DNA of 64,000 nt. Source: an uncultured Gammaproteobacteria bacterium (GTDB taxonomy: Bacteria; Patescibacteriota; Microgenomatia; Daviesbacterales; UBA10151). Position numbers and translations under genes: made by a program. The notes below the pieces were generated by a model. That model was not told where the DNA came from and searched no databases. It worked only from the letters and a program-made list of their open reading frames with translations. Location of the stretch: NCBI GenBank assembly GCA_964649615.1, contig CAZYPW010000008.1, forward strand, positions 574-64,573, in the 5' to 3' direction. Shown here piece after piece: positions 3,501 through 45,194 of the stretch; position 1 is the first letter of the stretch; the number at the start of each line of letters is the position of its first letter.

Positions 3501-4520
3501 TTATCCAGATAAGTATTCTCCCAAATTAGTAATTTCTATCTTAAATGGCCCTTTTTCCCCTTCCACCAACTTTCTGGCCACCTTTCTGCAAATTCCCTGC
3601 AAAGTTCTCTGCAAAGACCTAATCCCGCCGTCAAATCCTAAGGGCCTGATAATTTGCGGCCAGATGGTCTCATCTATTTTTAGCATACTTCTATCAATTC
3701 CTGCTTCATCCATCGCTTTGGGCAAAAGATAATTTTTGCCTATCACTACCTTTTCCTCATCAGAGTATGAAGGCATTTGAATAGGCTCCAACCGATCCAT
3801 CACAGCCGTGGCTATATTGGTAGTATTATTGGCTGTGGCAATGAATAATACCTGTGATAGATCATAAGGGAAATCTAAATAATGGTCAACAAAAGAATGA
3901 TTCTGGGCAGGATCCAAAAGTTCAACTAAGACTCCCATAATATCTACTCTATATTCTTGGGCCACTCTATCAATTTCATCAAGTAAAATAACTGGATTGG
4001 AAACTTTGGCAGATTGGAGAGCCTTGATAATTAGTCCTACTTCTACATCAGGCCTGGATCTTGACTGGCCTCGCAAAGTAGCTGGATCTCCCAATCCTCC
4101 AAAAGGAATTCTCACAATAGGCCTACCAAGACTTTCAGCAATAGAATAAGCAATAGAGGTTTTACCAGTACCCACCAAACCAATAAAAGCCAGTATGGGA
4201 GCATGAAAAACAGTGGCATTTTTTTGTTTATGCAAGGTTAAAACAGATAAATATTCTAAAATTCTATCTTTGACTGATTGCAAACCAAAGTGTTCTTTAT
4301 CCAAAATTTGTTTGGCCCTGTTAATATCTAAAATATCCTGGGCATATTTGCCAAAAGGGAGCGATAACACAAAATTAGCATAAGAAACTAGCCTTTCAAA
4401 TTCTATGCCAGTTCCTGGAAATTTTAATAAGTTAAGTAATTTTTCTTCTATCTCACCGGATAAATTAGCTTGGGAAATTTTTACTTTTAATTCTTCAACT
4501 GTTGTTTGGGCAGAATCCAT
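3501..4520 (-). CDS. Lon-like AAA+ ATPase lacking the C-terminal protease domain
   Basis: The ORF aligns to the LonA substrate-recognition and ATPase region. It has Walker A GLVGTGKTS, Walker B ILLDEIDRV and a sensor region ending ...GIRSLQRTLQGICRKV. It stops where the Lon protease domain would begin, with 86 nt of non-coding palindrome following. Confidence 0.6.
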   Translation of the reverse strand: MDSAQTTVEELKVKISQANLSGEIEEKLLNLLKFPGTGIEFERLVSYANFVLSLPFGKYAQDILDINRAKQILDKEHFGLQSVKDRILEYLSVLTLHKQKNATVFHAPILAFIGLVGTGKTSIAYSIAESLGRPIVRIPFGGLGDPATLRGQSRSRPDVEVGLIIKALQSAKVSNPVILLDEIDRVAQEYRVDIMGVLVELLDPAQNHSFVDHYLDFPYDLSQVLFIATANNTTNIATAVMDRLEPIQMPSYSDEEKVVIGKNYLLPKAMDEAGIDRSMLKIDETIWPQIIRPLGFDGGIRSLQRTLQGICRKVARKLVEGEKGPFKIEITNLGEYLSG

Positions 4521-4539
4521 ACTTTAGGATATTTTATCA

Positions 4540-6942
4540 CTAACGGTTATATCCGCCACCGCCTCTTCCTCCACCACGATTCCCGCCTTCGCTAAAACTA
4601 CGACGGGCAGGCCTATCAAATCCACCAGACCTTCCGCCAAATCCTCCACTGCTTCTTCTCTCTCCTCCAAAACCACTCCTTGAGCTAGTTCTTCCTCCAC
4701 TTCTTTGGAATCCACCACCAAACCGTGGCCTGGATGAATCTCCAAAAGAAGAACGGGGCCTGAAGCCACCGCTGGAACGGAACCTGTCCGCTTCGCCAGC
4801 CTCGCGTCTAGGCGGGCCAGAGCGAAAACGAGGCGAGCCTTCTGATTGCGGCTTCATATCTGATCCAAAAAGCATAGACAAACCAACTTTTCCATCTGGA
4901 GAAACATCTGTAACTCTAACTTTCACAATTTGGCCTTCAGATACAACATCCTCTGGTTTTTCAACATGACCAGGAGCCATTTGAGAAATATGTACTAATC
5001 CATCTTTTCCAGGAGTAATTTCCACAAATGCTCCAAAAGCAGCTAGTCTCACCACTTTACCCTCAAACTCATCCCCAATATTAACTTTTTTAAACATAGC
5101 TTCAATCTCTACCATGGCATTTTTGACACTATCCTGACCAACTGCTGAAATCGTCACAGTTCCGTCATCCTCAATATCAATTTGAGCTCCGGTTTTGGCA
5201 ATTAACCCATTAATTGTTTTTCCACCAGTCCCAATCAAAAGTCCAATTTCTGATGGATCAATCTTCATTGTTTCAATTCTTGGAGCATACGGAGACATTG
5301 GTCCAACAGCAGGAATAACCTTATTCATATCTTCCAGGATTGCCAATCTGGCTGCTTTACCTTGTTTTAATGCCTCTTCAATAATCTCAAAAGATAACCC
5401 TTCCAGTTTGGTATCCATTTGGATAGCCGTAATTCCGTTTTTAGTGCCGGCAATCTTAAAATCCATTTCCCCATAAAAATCTTCCACAGCTCTCATGTCT
5501 GTAATAACCTGGAATTTTTTGTCATTGGAGAAAAGCCCCATGGCAATTCCGGCCACCGGTGTAATTAAAGGCACACCGGCATTCAAAAGTGCCAGTGAGG
5601 TAGCACAGACATCAGCCTGGGAAGTGGAAGCGTTGGCAGCTAAAACCTCAGAAACAACTCTGATGGCATAAGGAAAAGTATCCTCTGAAGGGATTACCGG
5701 CAGGATAGCTTTTTCTGCTAAACCTCCGTGTCCCACGTCACGCCTGTTAGGAGAACCTATTCTTTTGACCTCACCGACCGAAAAAGGATTAATGCTCATA
5801 TTGTAATAATGCATAAATCTCTTTTTCCTCTCTCCTTCCATACCGTCCAGAGTTTGCTCTAAAGATGGGGCACCCAGGGTAGCTACAGCTAAGACTTGAG
5901 TGTCACCTCTTTTAAACAAAGCGCTGCCGTGTGTTCTGGGCAGAAGCCCCACTTCCATGCTTAAAGGCCTAATTTCTTCCATGGCCCTGCCGTCTACTCT
6001 TTTTTGCTTTTCCAAAACTGTTTCGTGAACTATCTCCTTGGCCACTTTATCAAATATTCCGGAAATTATTTGGGGAGTTAGTTTGTCAGCATATTGAACT
6101 GCCAATTGTTTTTTGATTAAGTCCCCGGTTGCCTCATGCCATGGATGATCATTGTCAAACAAAGCTGCTTCAATCCTGTCTTTGGTAAGTTTGGTGACCT
6201 CTGTTAATAATGCTTCTTCCAAAGCCTCATCAATATGTGATATTTCCATCTTTACTTTGCCTGCTTCTTTGGTAAATTCTTCTATTAAAGCAATTATTTC
6301 TTGAGACTGTTTATGTGCTTCTTTGATACCGTCAAATACAATTTTGTCATCAACCTGCTTGGCTCCTGTTTCTATCATGACTACTTTCTCGCTACCAGAT
6401 GCCACCAACAGCTCCATATTTAAAGATTCGTATTGATCCATAGTCGGATTAATAATTAAAGTTCCGTCTTTTTCACCAACTCTGACTCCGGCAATAGGCC
6501 CATTCCAGGGAATAGATGAGATGGAAAGTGCAGCTGATGCGCCAATTAAACCCAAAATGTCCGGGTCATTGCTCTGGTCAAAAGATAACACACTCAAAAT
6601 TACCTGAACTTCATTCATCTTAAATTCTTTGGGGAAGAGTGGCCTGATTGATCTATCTATTAGCCTAGCTGTTAAAATAGATTCATCTGTAGGCCTGGCT
6701 TCTCTTTTAATAAATTTAGACGAGGAGATTTTGCCTCCGGCGTAATGTTTTTCAACATACTCAACAGACAAAGGAAAGTATCCTATATCTTCTTTTAAGG
6801 ATTGAGTCGCCACAGTTGCCAAAACAACTGTTTCACCCCAAGTTAGAAGAACAGATGCATCAGCCTGTTGGGCAAGACGCCCAGTTTCCAGTACTAATTT
6901 TCTACCATTTAAATCTATTTCTTTTTTTACTATTTTGTTCAT
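4540..6942 (-). CDS. pnp: Polynucleotide phosphorylase with a roughly 100-aa Arg/Gly/Ser-rich (RGG-like) C-terminal extension
   Basis: Two RNase PH domains, a KH domain (GKTINGLIAKTGAQIDIEDDG) and an S1 domain are present. The tail reads RFRSGPPRREAGE...GGRGGGGYNR. rpsO lies upstream, the classic rpsO-pnp arrangement. Confidence 0.9.
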   Translation of the reverse strand: MNKIVKKEIDLNGRKLVLETGRLAQQADASVLLTWGETVVLATVATQSLKEDIGYFPLSVEYVEKHYAGGKISSSKFIKREARPTDESILTARLIDRSIRPLFPKEFKMNEVQVILSVLSFDQSNDPDILGLIGASAALSISSIPWNGPIAGVRVGEKDGTLIINPTMDQYESLNMELLVASGSEKVVMIETGAKQVDDKIVFDGIKEAHKQSQEIIALIEEFTKEAGKVKMEISHIDEALEEALLTEVTKLTKDRIEAALFDNDHPWHEATGDLIKKQLAVQYADKLTPQIISGIFDKVAKEIVHETVLEKQKRVDGRAMEEIRPLSMEVGLLPRTHGSALFKRGDTQVLAVATLGAPSLEQTLDGMEGERKKRFMHYYNMSINPFSVGEVKRIGSPNRRDVGHGGLAEKAILPVIPSEDTFPYAIRVVSEVLAANASTSQADVCATSLALLNAGVPLITPVAGIAMGLFSNDKKFQVITDMRAVEDFYGEMDFKIAGTKNGITAIQMDTKLEGLSFEIIEEALKQGKAARLAILEDMNKVIPAVGPMSPYAPRIETMKIDPSEIGLLIGTGGKTINGLIAKTGAQIDIEDDGTVTISAVGQDSVKNAMVEIEAMFKKVNIGDEFEGKVVRLAAFGAFVEITPGKDGLVHISQMAPGHVEKPEDVVSEGQIVKVRVTDVSPDGKVGLSMLFGSDMKPQSEGSPRFRSGPPRREAGEADRFRSSGGFRPRSSFGDSSRPRFGGGFQRSGGRTSSRSGFGGERRSSGGFGGRSGGFDRPARRSFSEGGNRGGGRGGGGYNR

Positions 6943-34279: not shown

Positions 34280-35287
34280 ATGGATTTACGGCCAATTACT
34301 GACAAACAAAAATCCCAATATAACAAACTGGTTACCCATGTTATCCAGTCCTGGGAATGGGGGAAATTTCGCAAAAGTTTGGGGATACCAGTTGTAAGAT
34401 ATGGATTATACAAAAATGACAAATTATCAAAAGCATTCCAGCTAACCTTACACAAAATTCCATTCACAGACAAATTTGTAGGTTACCTGCCAAAAGGCCC
34501 GTTCCCGAATAAAGATTTGGCAGGGACTCTTGAAAAAATTGGCAAAGAATATCATTGTGCTTTTATAAAACTTGAACCGAATGTAGAGGTTACAGGTAAT
34601 AGGTTACAGGTTACAGGAAACCTCATTAAATCTCCTAAACCACTTTTTACAAAATACAACTTCGTACTAGATCTGACAAAATCCGAGGAGGAACTTTTAA
34701 AAAATATGCACCCTAAAACCAGATACAATATTAAAGTAGCTCAAAAACATGGAGTTAAAGTAGAAGAAAGAGTAGATGATGAAGCTTTCAAAATTTATTT
34801 AAAATTATATTTTGAGACAACTAAACGCCAGGGTTATCATGGCCATAATGAAAACTACCACAGAAAAGTTTGGGAAACTTTGAAAAAAGAAAATATGGCT
34901 ACCTTATTAATAGCCACCCTAAAAAGTGCGCCTCTAACTGCCTGGATGCTGCTCAAATTTAGGGATACTCTATACTATCCATACGGTGGTTCATCGCTTG
35001 CCCATAGAGAAGCTATGGCCAATAATTTAGTAGCCTGGGAGGCTATAAAATTAGGCAAAAAAATGGGCCTTAAAAAATTTGATATGTGGGGAGCATTGAG
35101 TTCTGATGCCAACCCTCAAGATCCCTGGTTCGGATTCCATAAATTCAAACAAGGTTATGGTGGAAAATTAGTTGAGTATATCGGCACATATGATTTAGTT
35201 TTCAACTGGCCAATTTACATCTTGTTTACAGCTATTGACAAATTGACTCCTTTAAAAATTGCCCTCCTGAAATTGCTAAAAAAGTAA
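34280..35287 (+). CDS. FemAB-family peptidoglycan interpeptide-bridge aminoacyltransferase
   Basis: A FemX/MurM-like GNAT-pair architecture of about 335 aa with conserved ...KTRYNIK...KRQGYHG... regions. Confidence 0.7.
   Translation: MDLRPITDKQKSQYNKLVTHVIQSWEWGKFRKSLGIPVVRYGLYKNDKLSKAFQLTLHKIPFTDKFVGYLPKGPFPNKDLAGTLEKIGKEYHCAFIKLEPNVEVTGNRLQVTGNLIKSPKPLFTKYNFVLDLTKSEEELLKNMHPKTRYNIKVAQKHGVKVEERVDDEAFKIYLKLYFETTKRQGYHGHNENYHRKVWETLKKENMATLLIATLKSAPLTAWMLLKFRDTLYYPYGGSSLAHREAMANNLVAWEAIKLGKKMGLKKFDMWGALSSDANPQDPWFGFHKFKQGYGGKLVEYIGTYDLVFNWPIYILFTAIDKLTPLKIALLKLLKK
34583..34617. repeat. Heptamer tandem array (gtagagg/ttacagg/taatagg/ttacagg/ttacagg) inside the femAB-family gene
   Basis: Seen in sequence. 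It encodes VEVTGNRLQVTGNL. It is the same TTRYAGG unit family as the pcrA array, in the opposite orientation. Confidence 0.7.
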
Positions 35288-35701
35288 ATCACGAGCCACC
35301 TTATAACCCTTATTCTTATAAAACTCATCAAAAGACAAAATAATACCTGCTTTATGCTGCTTTGCCAGTGCCAAAATCAAACAATCAAAGGGGGTATGGT
35401 GTTTAGAGGCTAATGCGTCAAAGTAGCTGACTGAATTCATAAAATCTTCCTGGGAAACAGCTATTACCAATAGATTAGGGTCCGTATATTGTTGTAACAA
35501 TTCATTAGTAAGCTGGGGGTTGTTGTAACGCCTTTGAATAGTTGTGGCAGCTTCAACCAAAGCAGAAACAGGAAATAATACCTTTGCTCCACTCTCAATC
35601 AACTTCTGTGCTATTTTTAGTGCATAAATGTGGTTGGAATCATTTTCCATCATCTGGGAGATTAAAAAATCAGCATCACAGACACAAACCTGATTATCCA
35701 T
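35276..35701 (-). CDS. vapC: PIN-domain toxin VapC
   Basis: PIN acidic residues lie in VCDADFLIS, ...PFDCLILALA and ILSFD. It overlaps the upstream antitoxin gene. Confidence 0.75.
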   Translation of the reverse strand: MDNQVCVCDADFLISQMMENDSNHIYALKIAQKLIESGAKVLFPVSALVEAATTIQRRYNNPQLTNELLQQYTDPNLLVIAVSQEDFMNSVSYFDALASKHHTPFDCLILALAKQHKAGIILSFDEFYKNKGYKVARDLLF

Positions 35702-35971
35702 TTTTATTGCCCTGACCCTGCCACATCTTATCTATCTCTTCTAAAGCACTACTCTTTGGCAATTTGCCAGTTTGATATTTTTTACCCAACTCAGCTAGTT
35801 TAAGCAAAGACTTTGCAGAGGCATTTTTTTGAGAGCTGGCAGTCTCCAAACCTGCTTCAAGGGCGGCTCTTATGACTTCGGCCTGGCTAGTGCCCTCGCT
35901 ATCAGCAACCTTTTTTATCCTCTCTTTTATGTACGCTGGTATATACATCATGGTCTTTTGCATTTGCATAA
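35694..35971 (-). CDS. vapB: Ribbon-helix-helix (CopG/VapB-type) antitoxin
   Basis: The RHH fold reads IPAYIKERIKKVADSEGTSQAEVIRAALEAGL. The track start at 35990 lies inside the promoter, so the likely start is the ATG at 35971 (MQMQKT). Confidence 0.7.
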
Positions 35972-35978
35972 TATAATC

Positions 35979-36018
35979 ATTATACCACAAATACCATATA
36001 TGTCAAGTATATATGGTA
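35979..36018 (-). promoter_or_regulatory. vapBC promoter with a palindromic operator over the -35 box
   Basis: On the minus strand a TTGACA is followed by a 16-nt spacer and TATAAT, then 9 nt to the ATG (near-leaderless). A 10-bp inverted repeat taccatatat-N7-atatatggta (35992-36018) brackets the -35. Confidence 0.5.
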
Positions 36019-36026
36019 AATCAGCT

Positions 36027-36048
36027 CAATTTTGACTGAAATCTTACA
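36027..36048. repeat. Direct repeat copy 1 (aattttgactgaaatcttaca) upstream of fic
   Basis: It is identical over 21 bp to 37134-37154 and contains a TTGACT -35-like hexamer. Confidence 0.7.
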
Positions 36049-36087
36049 AAGTACACTATTTTATACTACACTAATGCCCATATACAC

Positions 36088-36116
36088 TTGACATGTAGTG
36101 TTAAGTAGTATAAGAT
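36088..36116 (+). promoter_or_regulatory. Putative fic promoter
   Basis: TTGACA-N17-TAAGAT sits 6 nt upstream of the fic ATG (leaderless-type). Confidence 0.35.
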
Positions 36117-36122
36117 AGCCTT

Positions 36123-37064
36123 ATGGATAACAAATTACAGCTACTTACTAGGAAAAAACAAAAACTAGACACTTTCAGACCATTACCGCCAGAACTGGTT
36201 AAAAATCTTGATGACTGGTTTAAGGTTGAGTTGACCTATACCTCTAATGCCATAGAAGGGAACACCCTTACGAGGGCAGAGACAGCCTTGGTAGTGGAAA
36301 AGGGTCTTACAGTTCAGGGCAAAAGTTTAACAGAACATTTAGAGGCTACTAATCATGCCGAGGCATTAGATTATGTAAAAACACTAGTTGGTAAGAATAG
36401 ACAAGACATAACTGAAAACGACATTTTTGAGATACACAAACTAATCCTAAATAAAATTGAGGCAGAAAATGCTGGAAGATATAGGACACAACATGCAAGG
36501 TTTACGCAGTCAGATGTGGTTTTACCAAACCCTGTTAAAATCCCAGACCTGATGCAAGAGTTTATGGTTTGGTTAAAGGGTCGAAACTTAGACCATATAG
36601 TTAAAATTGCTGCCGATGCCCATTATAGGTTAGTCAGTATCCATCCTTTCTCGGATGGTAATGGTAGAACTTCACGCCTCTTAATGAATTTACTTTTAAT
36701 GCAACAGGGATACCCACCAGCCATCATCCGTAAAGAAGACAGGTTAGCTTACATAAACTCTTTAGAAAAGGCTCAAAAAGGGAATGGCTTGGATGATTTC
36801 TACAACCTTGTCTATGAGGCAGTTGACCGTTCATTGGATATTTACCTTGAGGCGATTGAGCCTGAGAGGATAAGTGTGGCTGAACCAAGTCCCAAGCAAC
36901 TTTTCTATACCACAGAGGAAGTGGCAAAGTTACTTCAGGTAGACCCAGAAAGTGTCAGGCGTTATGTTAGAAGTGGAAAATTAAGGGCAGTCAGGTTAGG
37001 CGGCAAATTTATCAGAATAGACAGAGCGGACTTAAATAATTTTATAGAGGAACTTAAAAGATAA
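36123..37064 (+). CDS. fic: Fic/Doc-family AMPylase fused to a C-terminal excisionase/MerR-type HTH domain
   Basis: The Fic motif is HPFSDGNGRTSR. The C-terminal HTH reads LFYTTEEVAKLLQVDPESVRRYVRSGKLRAVRLGGKFIRI. Confidence 0.85.
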   Translation: MDNKLQLLTRKKQKLDTFRPLPPELVKNLDDWFKVELTYTSNAIEGNTLTRAETALVVEKGLTVQGKSLTEHLEATNHAEALDYVKTLVGKNRQDITENDIFEIHKLILNKIEAENAGRYRTQHARFTQSDVVLPNPVKIPDLMQEFMVWLKGRNLDHIVKIAADAHYRLVSIHPFSDGNGRTSRLLMNLLLMQQGYPPAIIRKEDRLAYINSLEKAQKGNGLDDFYNLVYEAVDRSLDIYLEAIEPERISVAEPSPKQLFYTTEEVAKLLQVDPESVRRYVRSGKLRAVRLGGKFIRIDRADLNNFIEELKR

Positions 37065-37131
37065 AAGTGTGGTTTAATTAAATAAAACCATATTTTTCAA
37101 TCATTTAGCCTCAAAACATTGAAAAATACCT

Positions 37132-37166
37132 CAAATTTTGACTGAAATCTTACAGCACGTTATAAT
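37132..37166 (+). promoter_or_regulatory. Direct repeat copy 2 forming a consensus sigma70-type promoter for the downstream methyltransferase
   Basis: TTGACT-gaaatcttacagcacgt (17 nt)-TATAAT. The repeat core lies at 37134-37154. Confidence 0.55.
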
Positions 37167-37202
37167 CAACCAAATTTTTAATCAAATCTTTCAATACACA
37201 TA

Positions 37203-37760
37203 ATGGATATAACTCTTATAATTTCCAGTGGAATTTTACTTGGCTGCCTCCTTGCTCTTTCCTGGTTTGCCGGATCCGATGCCCCATATGTTCCAACTAA
37301 AATGGATTATATAAGAAAAATTTTGAAATTCGCCGGGGTTAAAAAAGGCAGAAAATTTTATGAATTAGGATCCGGTGATGGAAGGGTAGTTATAGCAGCT
37401 GCAAAACTGGGGGCTCACTCTATTGGAATAGAGCAGTCTTGGATTCGCGTATTATATTCAAAATATAAATCCAGCAAACTAGCTTCCCACTCGTCAAGTG
37501 GGAACGTAGATTTTTATCATGGAAATATTTTTAAAAAATCATACCAGGATGCAGATATTGTTTATATTTATTTACTCAACAAGGGTGTTAATAAATTGGA
37601 AGAAAAGTTAAGAAAAGAATTAAAAAAAGGGAGCATCGTAATCATCCAAACTTACCATTTTCCAAATTGGAAACCGTTTAAACAAATAGATCTTTCCAAA
37701 GAAATTGATTTTTCCAAAGATATTCAAGGGGCTGGAAACTTTTGGCTGTATCGAGTTTAA
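37203..37760 (+). CDS. Class I SAM-dependent methyltransferase with an N-terminal membrane anchor
   Basis: Motif I is ELGSGDGRVVIAAAKLG. An N-terminal TM helix is present. Confidence 0.6.
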   Translation: MDITLIISSGILLGCLLALSWFAGSDAPYVPTKMDYIRKILKFAGVKKGRKFYELGSGDGRVVIAAAKLGAHSIGIEQSWIRVLYSKYKSSKLASHSSSGNVDFYHGNIFKKSYQDADIVYIYLLNKGVNKLEEKLRKELKKGSIVIIQTYHFPNWKPFKQIDLSKEIDFSKDIQGAGNFWLYRV

Positions 37761-44063: not shown

Positions 44064-45194
44064 ATGCCCCTTAGAATTAAAATAACTAGAGATTTGTTAA
44101 ATAAATTTTATTGGGATAAAGATTTATCTATATATCAAATTGCTCCCATTTTAAAATACCATCCAGCAACTGTGGCAAAAAAATTGCATGAATTTAACAT
44201 TACTATCAAAACACCTACTGAAAGAACTATACTCTCTAAAAATAATCTTAAAGATTTATATTTAAAAGAAGGGCTATCTACAAATCAAGTCGCTAAACAA
44301 CTAAAATGTAGTGTTAAAACTGTCAGAAGAGGAATGAGAATATACAATATTTCTCTTCGTCCTCTGAAAAGAATTACCATAGAAAAAAAGATATTGGAAA
44401 CTCTTTACTATAAAAGTAATCTCTCGTTACAAACCATCGGGAAAAGGTATAATCTGACGCCATCTGGTGTTCTAAGGAAAATGAGAAAATATAATATCCG
44501 CTTAAAAACTAGTTGGGAAAATAATACTATTCATCCCAAAATACCTTTTAATGGTTCTTCTGAGGAAAAAGCTTATCTTATCGGCTTTAGATTGGGGGAT
44601 TTAGGAGTAAAGCAGAAAAGTAAACGTACTGGTTCTATTGTAGTCAAGTCTAACACCACAAAACTTGAACAAGTTACTTTGATGAAAAATCTATTTTCTT
44701 GTTATTCCGCCGTTTGGATCAGTGGGCCCAATATCAAAGGAGTATTCCATTTTACAACACTTTTACATCCCTCATTTGATTTTTTAATTCCTAAGAATGA
44801 TTGTATACCAGATTGGATCAAAAACACCAAAAAGCTTTTTCTTGCTTTTATAGCTGGGTACACGGACGCAGAGGGTAATATCGGAGTGTACGGTGGAAGA
44901 GCTCGTTTTAGAATTGGATCATATGACATAGGTATCTTGAGAAGTATAAATGATTTCTTTGCAAAACTCGGCCTTAGAACTATCCTAAGATTAGAGCAAC
45001 CAAAAGGTTTCATTGATAAACGAGGTGTTATACATAACGGAGATTTTTGGCGTGTATGTATAAATGAAAAGAATTCCCTGTTAAAAATTTTTGATTTATT
45101 AATTGTTTACATGAAGCATCAAAAGAGAATAGCAGATTTGCTGAAAGCAAGAGTTAATATTCTACAAAGAAATCATGCTATAATCCAGGCATGA
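44064..45194 (+). CDS. Free-standing double-motif LAGLIDADG homing endonuclease with three N-terminal HTH repeats
   Basis: The LAGLIDADG-like motifs are KAYLIGFRLGDLG and FLAFIAGYTDAEGNIGV. There are three ~55-aa repeats (...LSxxQIAxxLKxSxxTVxRxxRxYNI). The stop overlaps the metG ATG as ATGA. Confidence 0.65.
   Translation: MPLRIKITRDLLNKFYWDKDLSIYQIAPILKYHPATVAKKLHEFNITIKTPTERTILSKNNLKDLYLKEGLSTNQVAKQLKCSVKTVRRGMRIYNISLRPLKRITIEKKILETLYYKSNLSLQTIGKRYNLTPSGVLRKMRKYNIRLKTSWENNTIHPKIPFNGSSEEKAYLIGFRLGDLGVKQKSKRTGSIVVKSNTTKLEQVTLMKNLFSCYSAVWISGPNIKGVFHFTTLLHPSFDFLIPKNDCIPDWIKNTKKLFLAFIAGYTDAEGNIGVYGGRARFRIGSYDIGILRSINDFFAKLGLRTILRLEQPKGFIDKRGVIHNGDFWRVCINEKNSLLKIFDLLIVYMKHQKRIADLLKARVNILQRNHAIIQA

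Follow-up and report, generated by a model that had tools for sequence, protein, structure and literature searches.

The stretch of DNA analyzed here (64,000 nucleotides of contig CAZYPW010000008.1, hereafter the window) carries a fic gene between two copies of the 21-mer AATTTTGACTGAAATCTTACA, a sequence that we find to be the right terminus of a conserved 90-bp element, named E here. Both copies lie on the + strand, at 36028-36048 and 37134-37154. The chance expectation for the 21-mer was 0.01 copies, at least two copies occurred in 0 of 100 shuffles, and no third copy was found in the 64-kb window at ≤3 mismatches. When extended by the prefix CTCAA, copies 1 and 2 agreed at 25 of 26 positions, with one A indel. 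A first-pass annotation of this DNA had pointed to the repeat around fic, and these counts bear it out, with the start of copy 1 corrected from 36027 to 36028. The annotation also had the two copies flanking fic exactly. The gaps to the coding sequence are 74 bp (end of copy 1 to the ATG at 36123) and 69 bp (stop at 37064 to the start of copy 2); what the copies hug is a conserved fic unit (36053/56-37066/83). The features of the locus, including those attributed to an insertion sequence (IS), are as follows.

34280..35287, + strand: femAB-like gene (PF02388 FemAB, 1e-35); left border of the insertion hotspot
35276..35701, - strand: vapC, PIN-domain toxin gene (PF01850 PIN, 3e-8); accessory insert, absent here in most relatives
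35694..35969, - strand: vapB, ribbon-helix-helix (RHH) antitoxin gene, 91 amino acids (aa) (PF01402 RHH_1)
-35 at 36006-36001 and -10 at 35984-35979, - strand: predicted vapB promoter, sigma70 type (scan 12/12, extended TG)
36014..36048, + strand: E remnant 1 (E positions 56-90, right arm only); holds copy 1, with TTGACT at 36032-36037
36053..37083, + strand: self-contained fic unit with its own predicted promoter, coding sequence (36123-37064) and 3' hairpin
37086..37154, + strand: E remnant 2 (E positions 22-90), inner inverted repeat (37091-37106 / 37113-37128) plus right arm; holds copy 2
37138..37166, + strand: putative IS-derived promoter, with -35 TTGACT in the E right arm and -10 TATAAT 6 bp past the end of E; faces the methyltransferase gene
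37155..37202, + strand: putative IS 5' leader remnant (...AAATCTTTCAAT...), joined to the methyltransferase start; istA-istB apparently deleted
37203..37760, + strand: methyltransferase gene (PF13847 / PF08123); right border of the hotspot

Which parts of this arrangement are ancestral and which were added? The window was traced to a groundwater metagenome-assembled genome of Candidatus Daviesbacteria (GCA_016176385.1), and we collected 58 loci of other Daviesbacteria species by means of the methyltransferase protein; the labels L0xx and L1xx below denote comparison loci from other Daviesbacteria genomes or metagenome contigs. A femAB gene adjoined the methyltransferase gene in 55 of the 58. 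The gap between the two genes was -16 to +18 bp in 38/55 loci, with the femAB stop normally 0-18 bp from the methyltransferase ATG, and the frequent ...TAAATG... junction indicates a putative femAB-methyltransferase operon with translational coupling. Spacers of 72-189 bp consisting of various palindromic elements were present in 11/55 loci. The remaining six loci had inserts of 0.8-4.8 kb, and E was present in 6/6. Because femAB and the methyltransferase gene are adjacent in relatives, we take vapBC, fic and both repeats (35288-37202) to be inserted DNA. E and its IS recur as insertions at the femAB|methyltransferase junction; in the window, the insertion at this hotspot consists of the vapBC module, the fic unit and the two E remnants. 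The ancestral methyltransferase gene is predicted to have had no promoter of its own.

The first-pass annotation had suggested examining relatives without fic for a single copy of the repeat at the empty site. In our comparison, E was absent wherever femAB and the methyltransferase gene were contiguous. The spacer of L013 was considered as a solo E at an empty site and was rejected, as it also holds the istA leader and the last istB codons and is an IS deletion derivative. Exact-protein look-ups of the methyltransferase and FemAB returned the source contig only and no strain-level empty site. On the left side of the insertion, femAB and vapC converge and share 12 bp at their 3' ends (35276-35287). 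The femAB stop codon thereby marks the left edge of the insertion, where no E sequence occurs.

Other, unrelated palindromic spacer families occupy the same junction in L016, L023 and L028; in L021 and L026; in L020 and L045; in L007; in L010; and in L062 (examples are ACTCAAAT...ATTTGAGAT and TGTCATTCCGAG...GGAATGACA; 72-189 bp). The presence of unrelated families at one junction points to a general hotspot for small hairpin elements.

The element E runs TGTAAGATTTCA...TGAAATCTTACA. We gathered 27 distinct full-length variants and built a profile from them. These variants share a common architecture, with the consensus TGTAAGATTTCAATGTTATTATAnCnTATyTTkCAAT-(16-nt loop)-ATTGmAAAATCAnCTAAATTTTGACTGAAATCTTACA, and have TG..CA ends, perfect 12-bp terminal inverted repeats (TIRs; TGTAAGATTTCAATG...CTGAAATCTTACA) and a nested inner pair, TTGCAAT/ATTGAAA. 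The 19-mer TTTTGACTGAAATCTTACA, at the 3' end of the right terminus, had exact matches in each of the six long-insert loci and at several further loci; a locus held up to five copies, every one pointing the same way as the gene downstream. When metagenome contigs were scanned for exact matches to the 19-mer, 31 stretches were returned, of which ∼21 had E, again in arrays; the other ∼10 had no E context and were treated as chance matches. The 19-mer was absent from the viral contigs searched.

Both window remnants were recovered by nhmmer with the 27-variant profile. Remnant 1 gave E=1.6e-4 (and a BLAST match of 30/32 to the E copy of L064), and remnant 2, from which the left terminal repeat TGTAAGATTTCAATG is missing, gave E=7.7e-13. 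Remnant 2 and an E copy of L009 (6886-6936) are identical over 51 nt (37104-37154), with a mismatch at 37103, and the identity between the window and L009 covers 76 nt at 37133-37208. A degenerate "third copy" of the repeat lies at 37173-37193, inside the IS leader remnant. The repeat is mobile-element sequence, neither chance nor a purely regulatory motif. The suggestion of the first-pass annotation that the repeat is of a recombination type stands insofar as mobile-element sequence brackets cassettes in relatives; the proposed attachment (att)-like site does not, and E is not associated with an integrase.

The 16-nt loop of E (positions 38-53) exists in two orientations: one reads ACTTTAGCTTCAAAAC, and the other, GTTTTGAAGCTAAATC, is roughly the reverse complement of it. 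This flip/flop polymorphism separates L095, L096, L100, L092, L031 and L082 from the other E variants; a comparison on 43 nt was uninformative, and the two orientations are visible on the 16-nt loop alone.

We then asked what kind of mobile element E belongs to. In every istAB-carrying locus examined, E was located directly upstream of istA. The order E-N6-TATAATC-leader-ATG(istA) was found in L022, L060, L061, L064, L081, L088, L091, L095, L102, L107, L109 and L112-L117: the last E is followed by 5-7 variable bases, TATAATC (invariant in 13 aligned loci), a leader of ∼30 nt ending ...AAATCTTTCA, the transposase ATG and then a second gene. In these relatives, IstA of L060 (6011-7186) scored 197.5 bits against the IS21 transposase model NF033546 (cutoff 160) and matched PF00665 rve, and IstB, encoded immediately downstream of istA, scored 204.9 bits against NF038214 (cutoff 200) and matched PF01695 (3e-54). 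IstA of this group has ∼390 aa, versus 420-440 aa with HTH_38 in more distant homologues. It aligns to the IS21 model only from position 50, an in-frame stop upstream rules out a longer open reading frame (ORF), and the first helix-turn-helix (HTH) seems to be missing.

All copies have the stop codon of istB abutting or overlapping the start codon of the methyltransferase gene or of a UvrD-like helicase gene, which lies ∼6 kb upstream of the methyltransferase gene in the same cluster (istB-stop/host-ATG junctions: L022, 6987/6988; L060, 8000/8001; L115, 2539; L107, 9629/9630; L112, 3060/3061; L061, about 2290). Between species, identities were 58-81% for IstA, 59-89% for IstB and 55-80% for host proteins; IstA/IstB and host proteins rank the species similarly, and IstA/IstB do not sort by insertion site. 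These data suggest that istAB is a long-resident, low-copy element with two fixed sites, not a recently spreading IS.

The window carries what appears to be the front of such an element. Because copy 2 and the 48 nt downstream of it align with istA 5' regions, we conclude that 37086-37202 is probably the 5' end of an IS from which istAB was deleted. The window leader aligns with the istA leaders of L060, L022, L064, L107, L061 and L095, and the methyltransferase ATG follows 10 nt after the end of the alignment. In relatives, the TTGACT of E and the TATAAT 6 bp beyond E form the istA promoter. The promoter scan of the window scored TTGACT(37138)-17-TATAAT(37166) at 11/12, in agreement with the promoter that the first-pass annotation had read in the downstream copy. 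In the same scan, copy 1 had no usable -10 and no promoter was called at E remnant 1.

In IS21, the TIRs contain L1/L2 and R1/R2 repeats, and a -35 in the right TIR together with a -10 in the left TIR forms a strong promoter at tandem junctions, which IstA occludes (PMC10122671). By analogy, the right-arm TTGACT of E with TATAAT 17 nt on fits this junction-promoter layout, and we infer that the post-E sequence may be a degenerate left TIR. The system further resembles IS21/IS5376 in that IstA and IstB of relatives score above NCBIfam cutoffs, the termini are TG..CA, E repeats TTTCAATG-type motifs in direct and inverted order, and the outward -35 in the right-arm terminus is paired with a -10 just beyond (PMC10122671). 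It differs in that a complete 90-bp inverted-repeat mini-element, not a simple left TIR, precedes istA; in the alignment of IstA from position 50; in the istB stop abutting the ATG of one of two host genes; in that no clean right TIR and no regular target duplications were found; and in an IstAB divergence that tracks host proteins.

On the basis of these results, we consider it likely that the repeats are the right terminus of E, that E is a module forming the left end of an IS21-family IS that resides in Candidatus Daviesbacteria and that the window holds a decayed example. In the proposed course of events, the IS would have inserted between femAB and the methyltransferase gene, breaking the operon coupling, and accessory DNA (vapBC, fic) would then have been gathered between successive E copies, as in relatives. 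The cargo may have entered by IS21-type replicon fusion, by recombination of an E on incoming DNA with a chromosomal E, or through later deletions. With istAB deleted later, the leader would have come to abut the methyltransferase ATG, and the IS promoter would now probably transcribe the methyltransferase gene. Copy 1 would be an inert relic, and fic an autonomous cargo with its own, probably autoregulated, promoter. The window locus would thus be an IS21-type relic whose promoter has probably been co-opted by a methyltransferase gene cut off from its operon, not an att-flanked toxin cassette.

Several observations weigh against this interpretation. No istA or istB is detectable in the 64-kb window, so the link to an IS is drawn from relatives. 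The istAB units show no clean inverted copy of the left terminus at their right end: a match of the istB end to the E right arm was exact over 14 nt in the L061 type (p about 0.004), marginal in L022 (p about 0.05) and not significant in L060, L064, L081 and L107. Members of the IS21 family duplicate 4-8 bp of their target. We found no target-site duplications around single E copies or E-istAB units, and among cassettes one of ∼22 had a target duplication, lying on the inner side of the ends. Part of the invariance of the 19-mer reflects ascertainment, as it served as the search query; the unseeded left terminus, and E copies found only via IstA homology, were equally conserved. The join between fic and the methyltransferase gene across copy 2 comes from the scaffold of the metagenome-assembled genome alone, and L064 has the same gene order. 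For the entry of fic between E copies, the routes given above are candidates only.

How does fic itself relate to E? The fic unit appears to be self-contained. Its predicted promoter (TTGACA 36088-17-TAAGAT 36116) ends 7 nt before the ATG, the mRNA is probably leaderless, and a small hairpin with a T-run lies 3' of the gene (37070-37092). Fic homologues at 83-91% identity occur in quite different gene neighborhoods. The nucleotide identity of the fic unit to fic loci in other contexts is 81-87%, with bounds at 36053/56 and 37066/83, and no E is present at those other loci. L064 has femAB-fic-E-istA(truncated)-methyltransferase and lacks a repeat on the left of fic. Since L064 has the downstream copy only and other fic loci have no E, the two-sided bracket is not a property of fic. 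These data suggest that fic is an independent cargo with its own promoter and terminator. Neither an att site nor a target-site duplication nor a promoter duplicated by fic insertion accounts for the repeats. A sequence to the left of fic in L064, GTAGACTAAAATA, had been likened to the post-E -10 region; the similarity was too weak and was not used.

A conserved palindrome, CTATTTTATACTAC / GTAGTATAAGATAG (36056-36125), encloses the fic promoter, a layout that is kept in fic units of other genomes, and the Fic HTH most plausibly, as we infer, autoregulates this palindromic promoter. A 20-nt inverted repeat with 90% complementarity (35997-36016 / 36078-36097) contains the -35 box of the vapB promoter in one arm and, in mirror image, that of the divergent fic promoter in the other, with copy 1 between the arms.

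The 942-bp fic gene encodes a 313-aa protein with PF02661 (6e-24) and a C-terminal PF12728 HTH_17 / TIGR01764 "excise" domain, in keeping with the excisionase-type HTH seen at first pass. Its active-site motif, H174PFSDGNGRTSR, fits HxFx(D/E)GNGRxxR, and an inhibitory motif, S41NAIEG (S41xxxE45G), is present in cis on the same polypeptide. The closest solved structures were FICD (5e-43) and 3CUC (4e-28), and PADLOC matched SoFic (6e-32) and PDC-S04. On these sequence features, the protein looks like a class II Fic, possibly a defense gene product and not the toxin of a toxin-antitoxin (TA) system, and the designation "toxin" in the first-pass annotation is doubtful. It shares with class II Fic proteins (human FICD/HYPE, BtFic 3CUC; SoFic candidates) the Fic motif HPFSDGNGRTSR and the N-terminal S-x-x-x-E-G motif; it differs from them by the C-terminal HTH_17 (excisionase/MerR-like) and, unlike FicT/FicA, has no separate antitoxin. 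A FicT/FicA-type TA pair was rejected, since the inhibitory helix is not on a separate antitoxin and vapBC, next to fic, is a PIN/RHH pair served by a promoter of its own. A role of the Fic HTH as an excisionase (Xis) was likewise rejected: HTH_17 is the C-terminal domain of a 313-aa Fic, and no integrase lies nearby. The domain is constant across thousands of Fic homologues, and no evidence of HTH_17 acting on the repeat was found.

In relatives and in metagenomes, successive same-orientation copies of E enclose segments of 0.4-2.7 kb. The guanine-plus-cytosine (GC) content of these cassettes is 44-59%, versus 32-36% for the hosts; that of the window fic segment is 38.9%. The genes in the cassettes are of many kinds and vary from species to species, with no cassette shared by two species. 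Within an array, the E copies hardly differ from one another. Like fic, the MazE-PIN pairs of L024 and L116 are enclosed by a right-arm fragment and a full E. In L107, cassette 3 (3628-6322, 2,695 bp; also in L106) has the 7-bp repeat CTGTATG at both ends, just inside the flanking E, as would be expected from the insertion of a circular DNA molecule at abutted ends of the element; none of the other ∼20 cassettes has such a repeat. The cassette closest to the IS is present in only one of L106 and L107. As to where the GC-rich cassettes came from, one cassette protein was used as a homology query and returned no hint of a taxonomic source.

Arrays of three to five near-identical E copies were observed in L022 (2227-5045), L107 (1696-7597), L106, L082 (1062-3791) and L009 (5223-7952), with the last E followed by istAB (or a remnant of it) or directly by the host gene. 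TA modules (MazE-PIN, Phd-PIN, RHH-PIN) lie beside or between E copies in L116 (2575-3461), L024 (6809-7909), L009 (4501-5312), L082 (382-1151) and L095 (278-1070); the MazE-PIN pairs of L024 and L116, which are homologous, point in opposite directions. In L022, the last 86 nt of cassette 1 (about 2620-2709) and the first 86 nt of cassette 2 (2800-2885) are 87% identical, and one E copy is thus flanked by a long direct repeat.

These arrays allow a broader reading, in which E and IstA/IstB are not an ordinary selfish IS but a system derived from IS21, long resident and fixed in position, that assembles arrays of foreign cassettes bounded by E upstream of two host genes. The system would be a transposase-based analogue of integrons, and vapBC-E-fic-E in the window a decayed array without the enzymes. 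We hold this reading only tentatively and think it unlikely on balance. E has points in common with integron arrays and with clusters of attC sites lacking integron-integrases (CALINs): near-identical imperfect palindromes in the same orientation part diverse cassettes, often promoterless or of TA type, beside a recombinase operon. Among the called genes and sequences of the window locus and the arrays, we found no IntI and no R/L core pattern; cassette orientation is mixed, and the enzyme associated with E is a DDE transposase with an AAA+ helper. Correia elements of Neisseria are miniature inverted-repeat transposable elements (MITEs) with outward promoters. Like MITEs of the Correia type, E is short, noncoding, bounded by inverted repeats, intergenic and promoter supplying; it differs in lacking a target duplication, in having one orientation at two sites in the genome-derived loci, and in forming arrays parted by foreign DNA. 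The unusual part is the arrays together with the position-fixed, long-resident istAB. If the arrays reflect an active capture mechanism, they would represent a new route of gene acquisition in streamlined episymbiont genomes. As far as our literature search found, this conserved 90-bp element of a candidate phyla radiation (CPR) lineage and its cassette arrays are undescribed, and nothing relevant on IS21, MITEs or integrons in Patescibacteria/Daviesbacteria was found.

Could the repeats instead be att- or attC-like sites of an integron-like cassette system into which an integrase inserted fic, perhaps aided by the HTH of Fic itself? The same-orientation arrays of imperfect palindromes that bracket diverse cassettes in relatives, the TA modules next to them, as in chromosomal integrons, the lack of target duplications at most cassettes and the HTH_17 / TIGR01764 domain of Fic are all in line with this possibility, which is close to the att-like site of the first-pass annotation. 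However, no integrase or resolvase gene was called within ∼10 kb on each side in the window contig or in the arrays read, E has TG..CA inverted-repeat ends and no GTTRRRY / RYYYAAC cores, and IS21 istAB always accompanies it; the repeat is missing from fic units elsewhere, and HTH_17 is constant in the Fic family. We regard integrase-mediated capture as improbable. Somewhat less probable still is a regulatory origin with no mobility involved, in which the repeat would be a promoter or operator motif conserved in a Daviesbacteria regulon, such as a site for the HTH of Fic. The repeat does contain a consensus -35 and recurs upstream of the methyltransferase and UvrD-like helicase genes in many species, always in the orientation of the gene; yet it is absent where femAB and the methyltransferase gene are contiguous, has transposon-type termini and istAB for company, and in many copies is followed by foreign DNA and no -10. 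The prospect, raised at first pass, that the repeat might be a common promoter motif at genes without linked insertions was not borne out, as the presence of E always coincided with inserted DNA.

The first-pass annotation had also offered a promoter duplication made by cassette insertion; a further alternative is accordingly a target-site or promoter duplication from fic entering the methyltransferase promoter. Identical 21-mers close to fic, the downstream one within a promoter and the upstream one without a -10, are what such an event would leave, but the methyltransferase gene has no promoter of its own in most relatives, where it directly adjoins femAB or overlaps it. The two copies are pieces of the 90-bp element truncated at different points, with unequal homology to E (35 versus 69 nt) beyond the 21-mer; the same sequence brackets unrelated DNA in dozens of other loci, the fic unit occurs elsewhere without the repeat, and L064 has fic with the downstream copy only. 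Moreover, 21-35 bp is far longer than the 5-bp target duplication of IS21 (PMC10122671). Of the alternatives weighed here, this one is hardly credible. Finally, the arrangement could be a chimeric join at the repeat in the metagenome assembly, which we think very unlikely. Logan contigs L002, L003 and L004, from three runs, carry femAB-vapCB-E-fic identical in sequence, and all three end at 37133, never crossing copy 2, in communities where E is multicopy. The Logan graph uses k = 31. The contig end is 31 nt after the sole mismatch (37103) to another E copy, and because the sequence is shared from 37104 on, a k = 31 graph would branch exactly after 37133; the stop implies further E copies in those samples. 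Against a chimera, femAB-vapCB-E-fic was assembled identically in four independent assemblies, the methyltransferase gene is the normal neighbor of femAB, so that continuation of the scaffold is expected, and L064, another species, shows fic-E-(istA')-methyltransferase.

Apart from these features, an Rfam scan of 35200-37400 (E≤1) returned no RNA family, and the methyltransferase protein gave an NF041081-like match below cutoff. Elsewhere in the window, the ORF at 44064-45194 (376 aa, multi-HTH) was considered as a transposase gene and rejected, with matches to HTH_38 (2e-8) and, weakly, to LAGLIDADG_3. It possibly encodes a homing-endonuclease-like DNA-binding protein and lies directly before a gene for a class I aminoacyl-tRNA synthetase (Pfam matches tRNA-synt_1/1e/1g).

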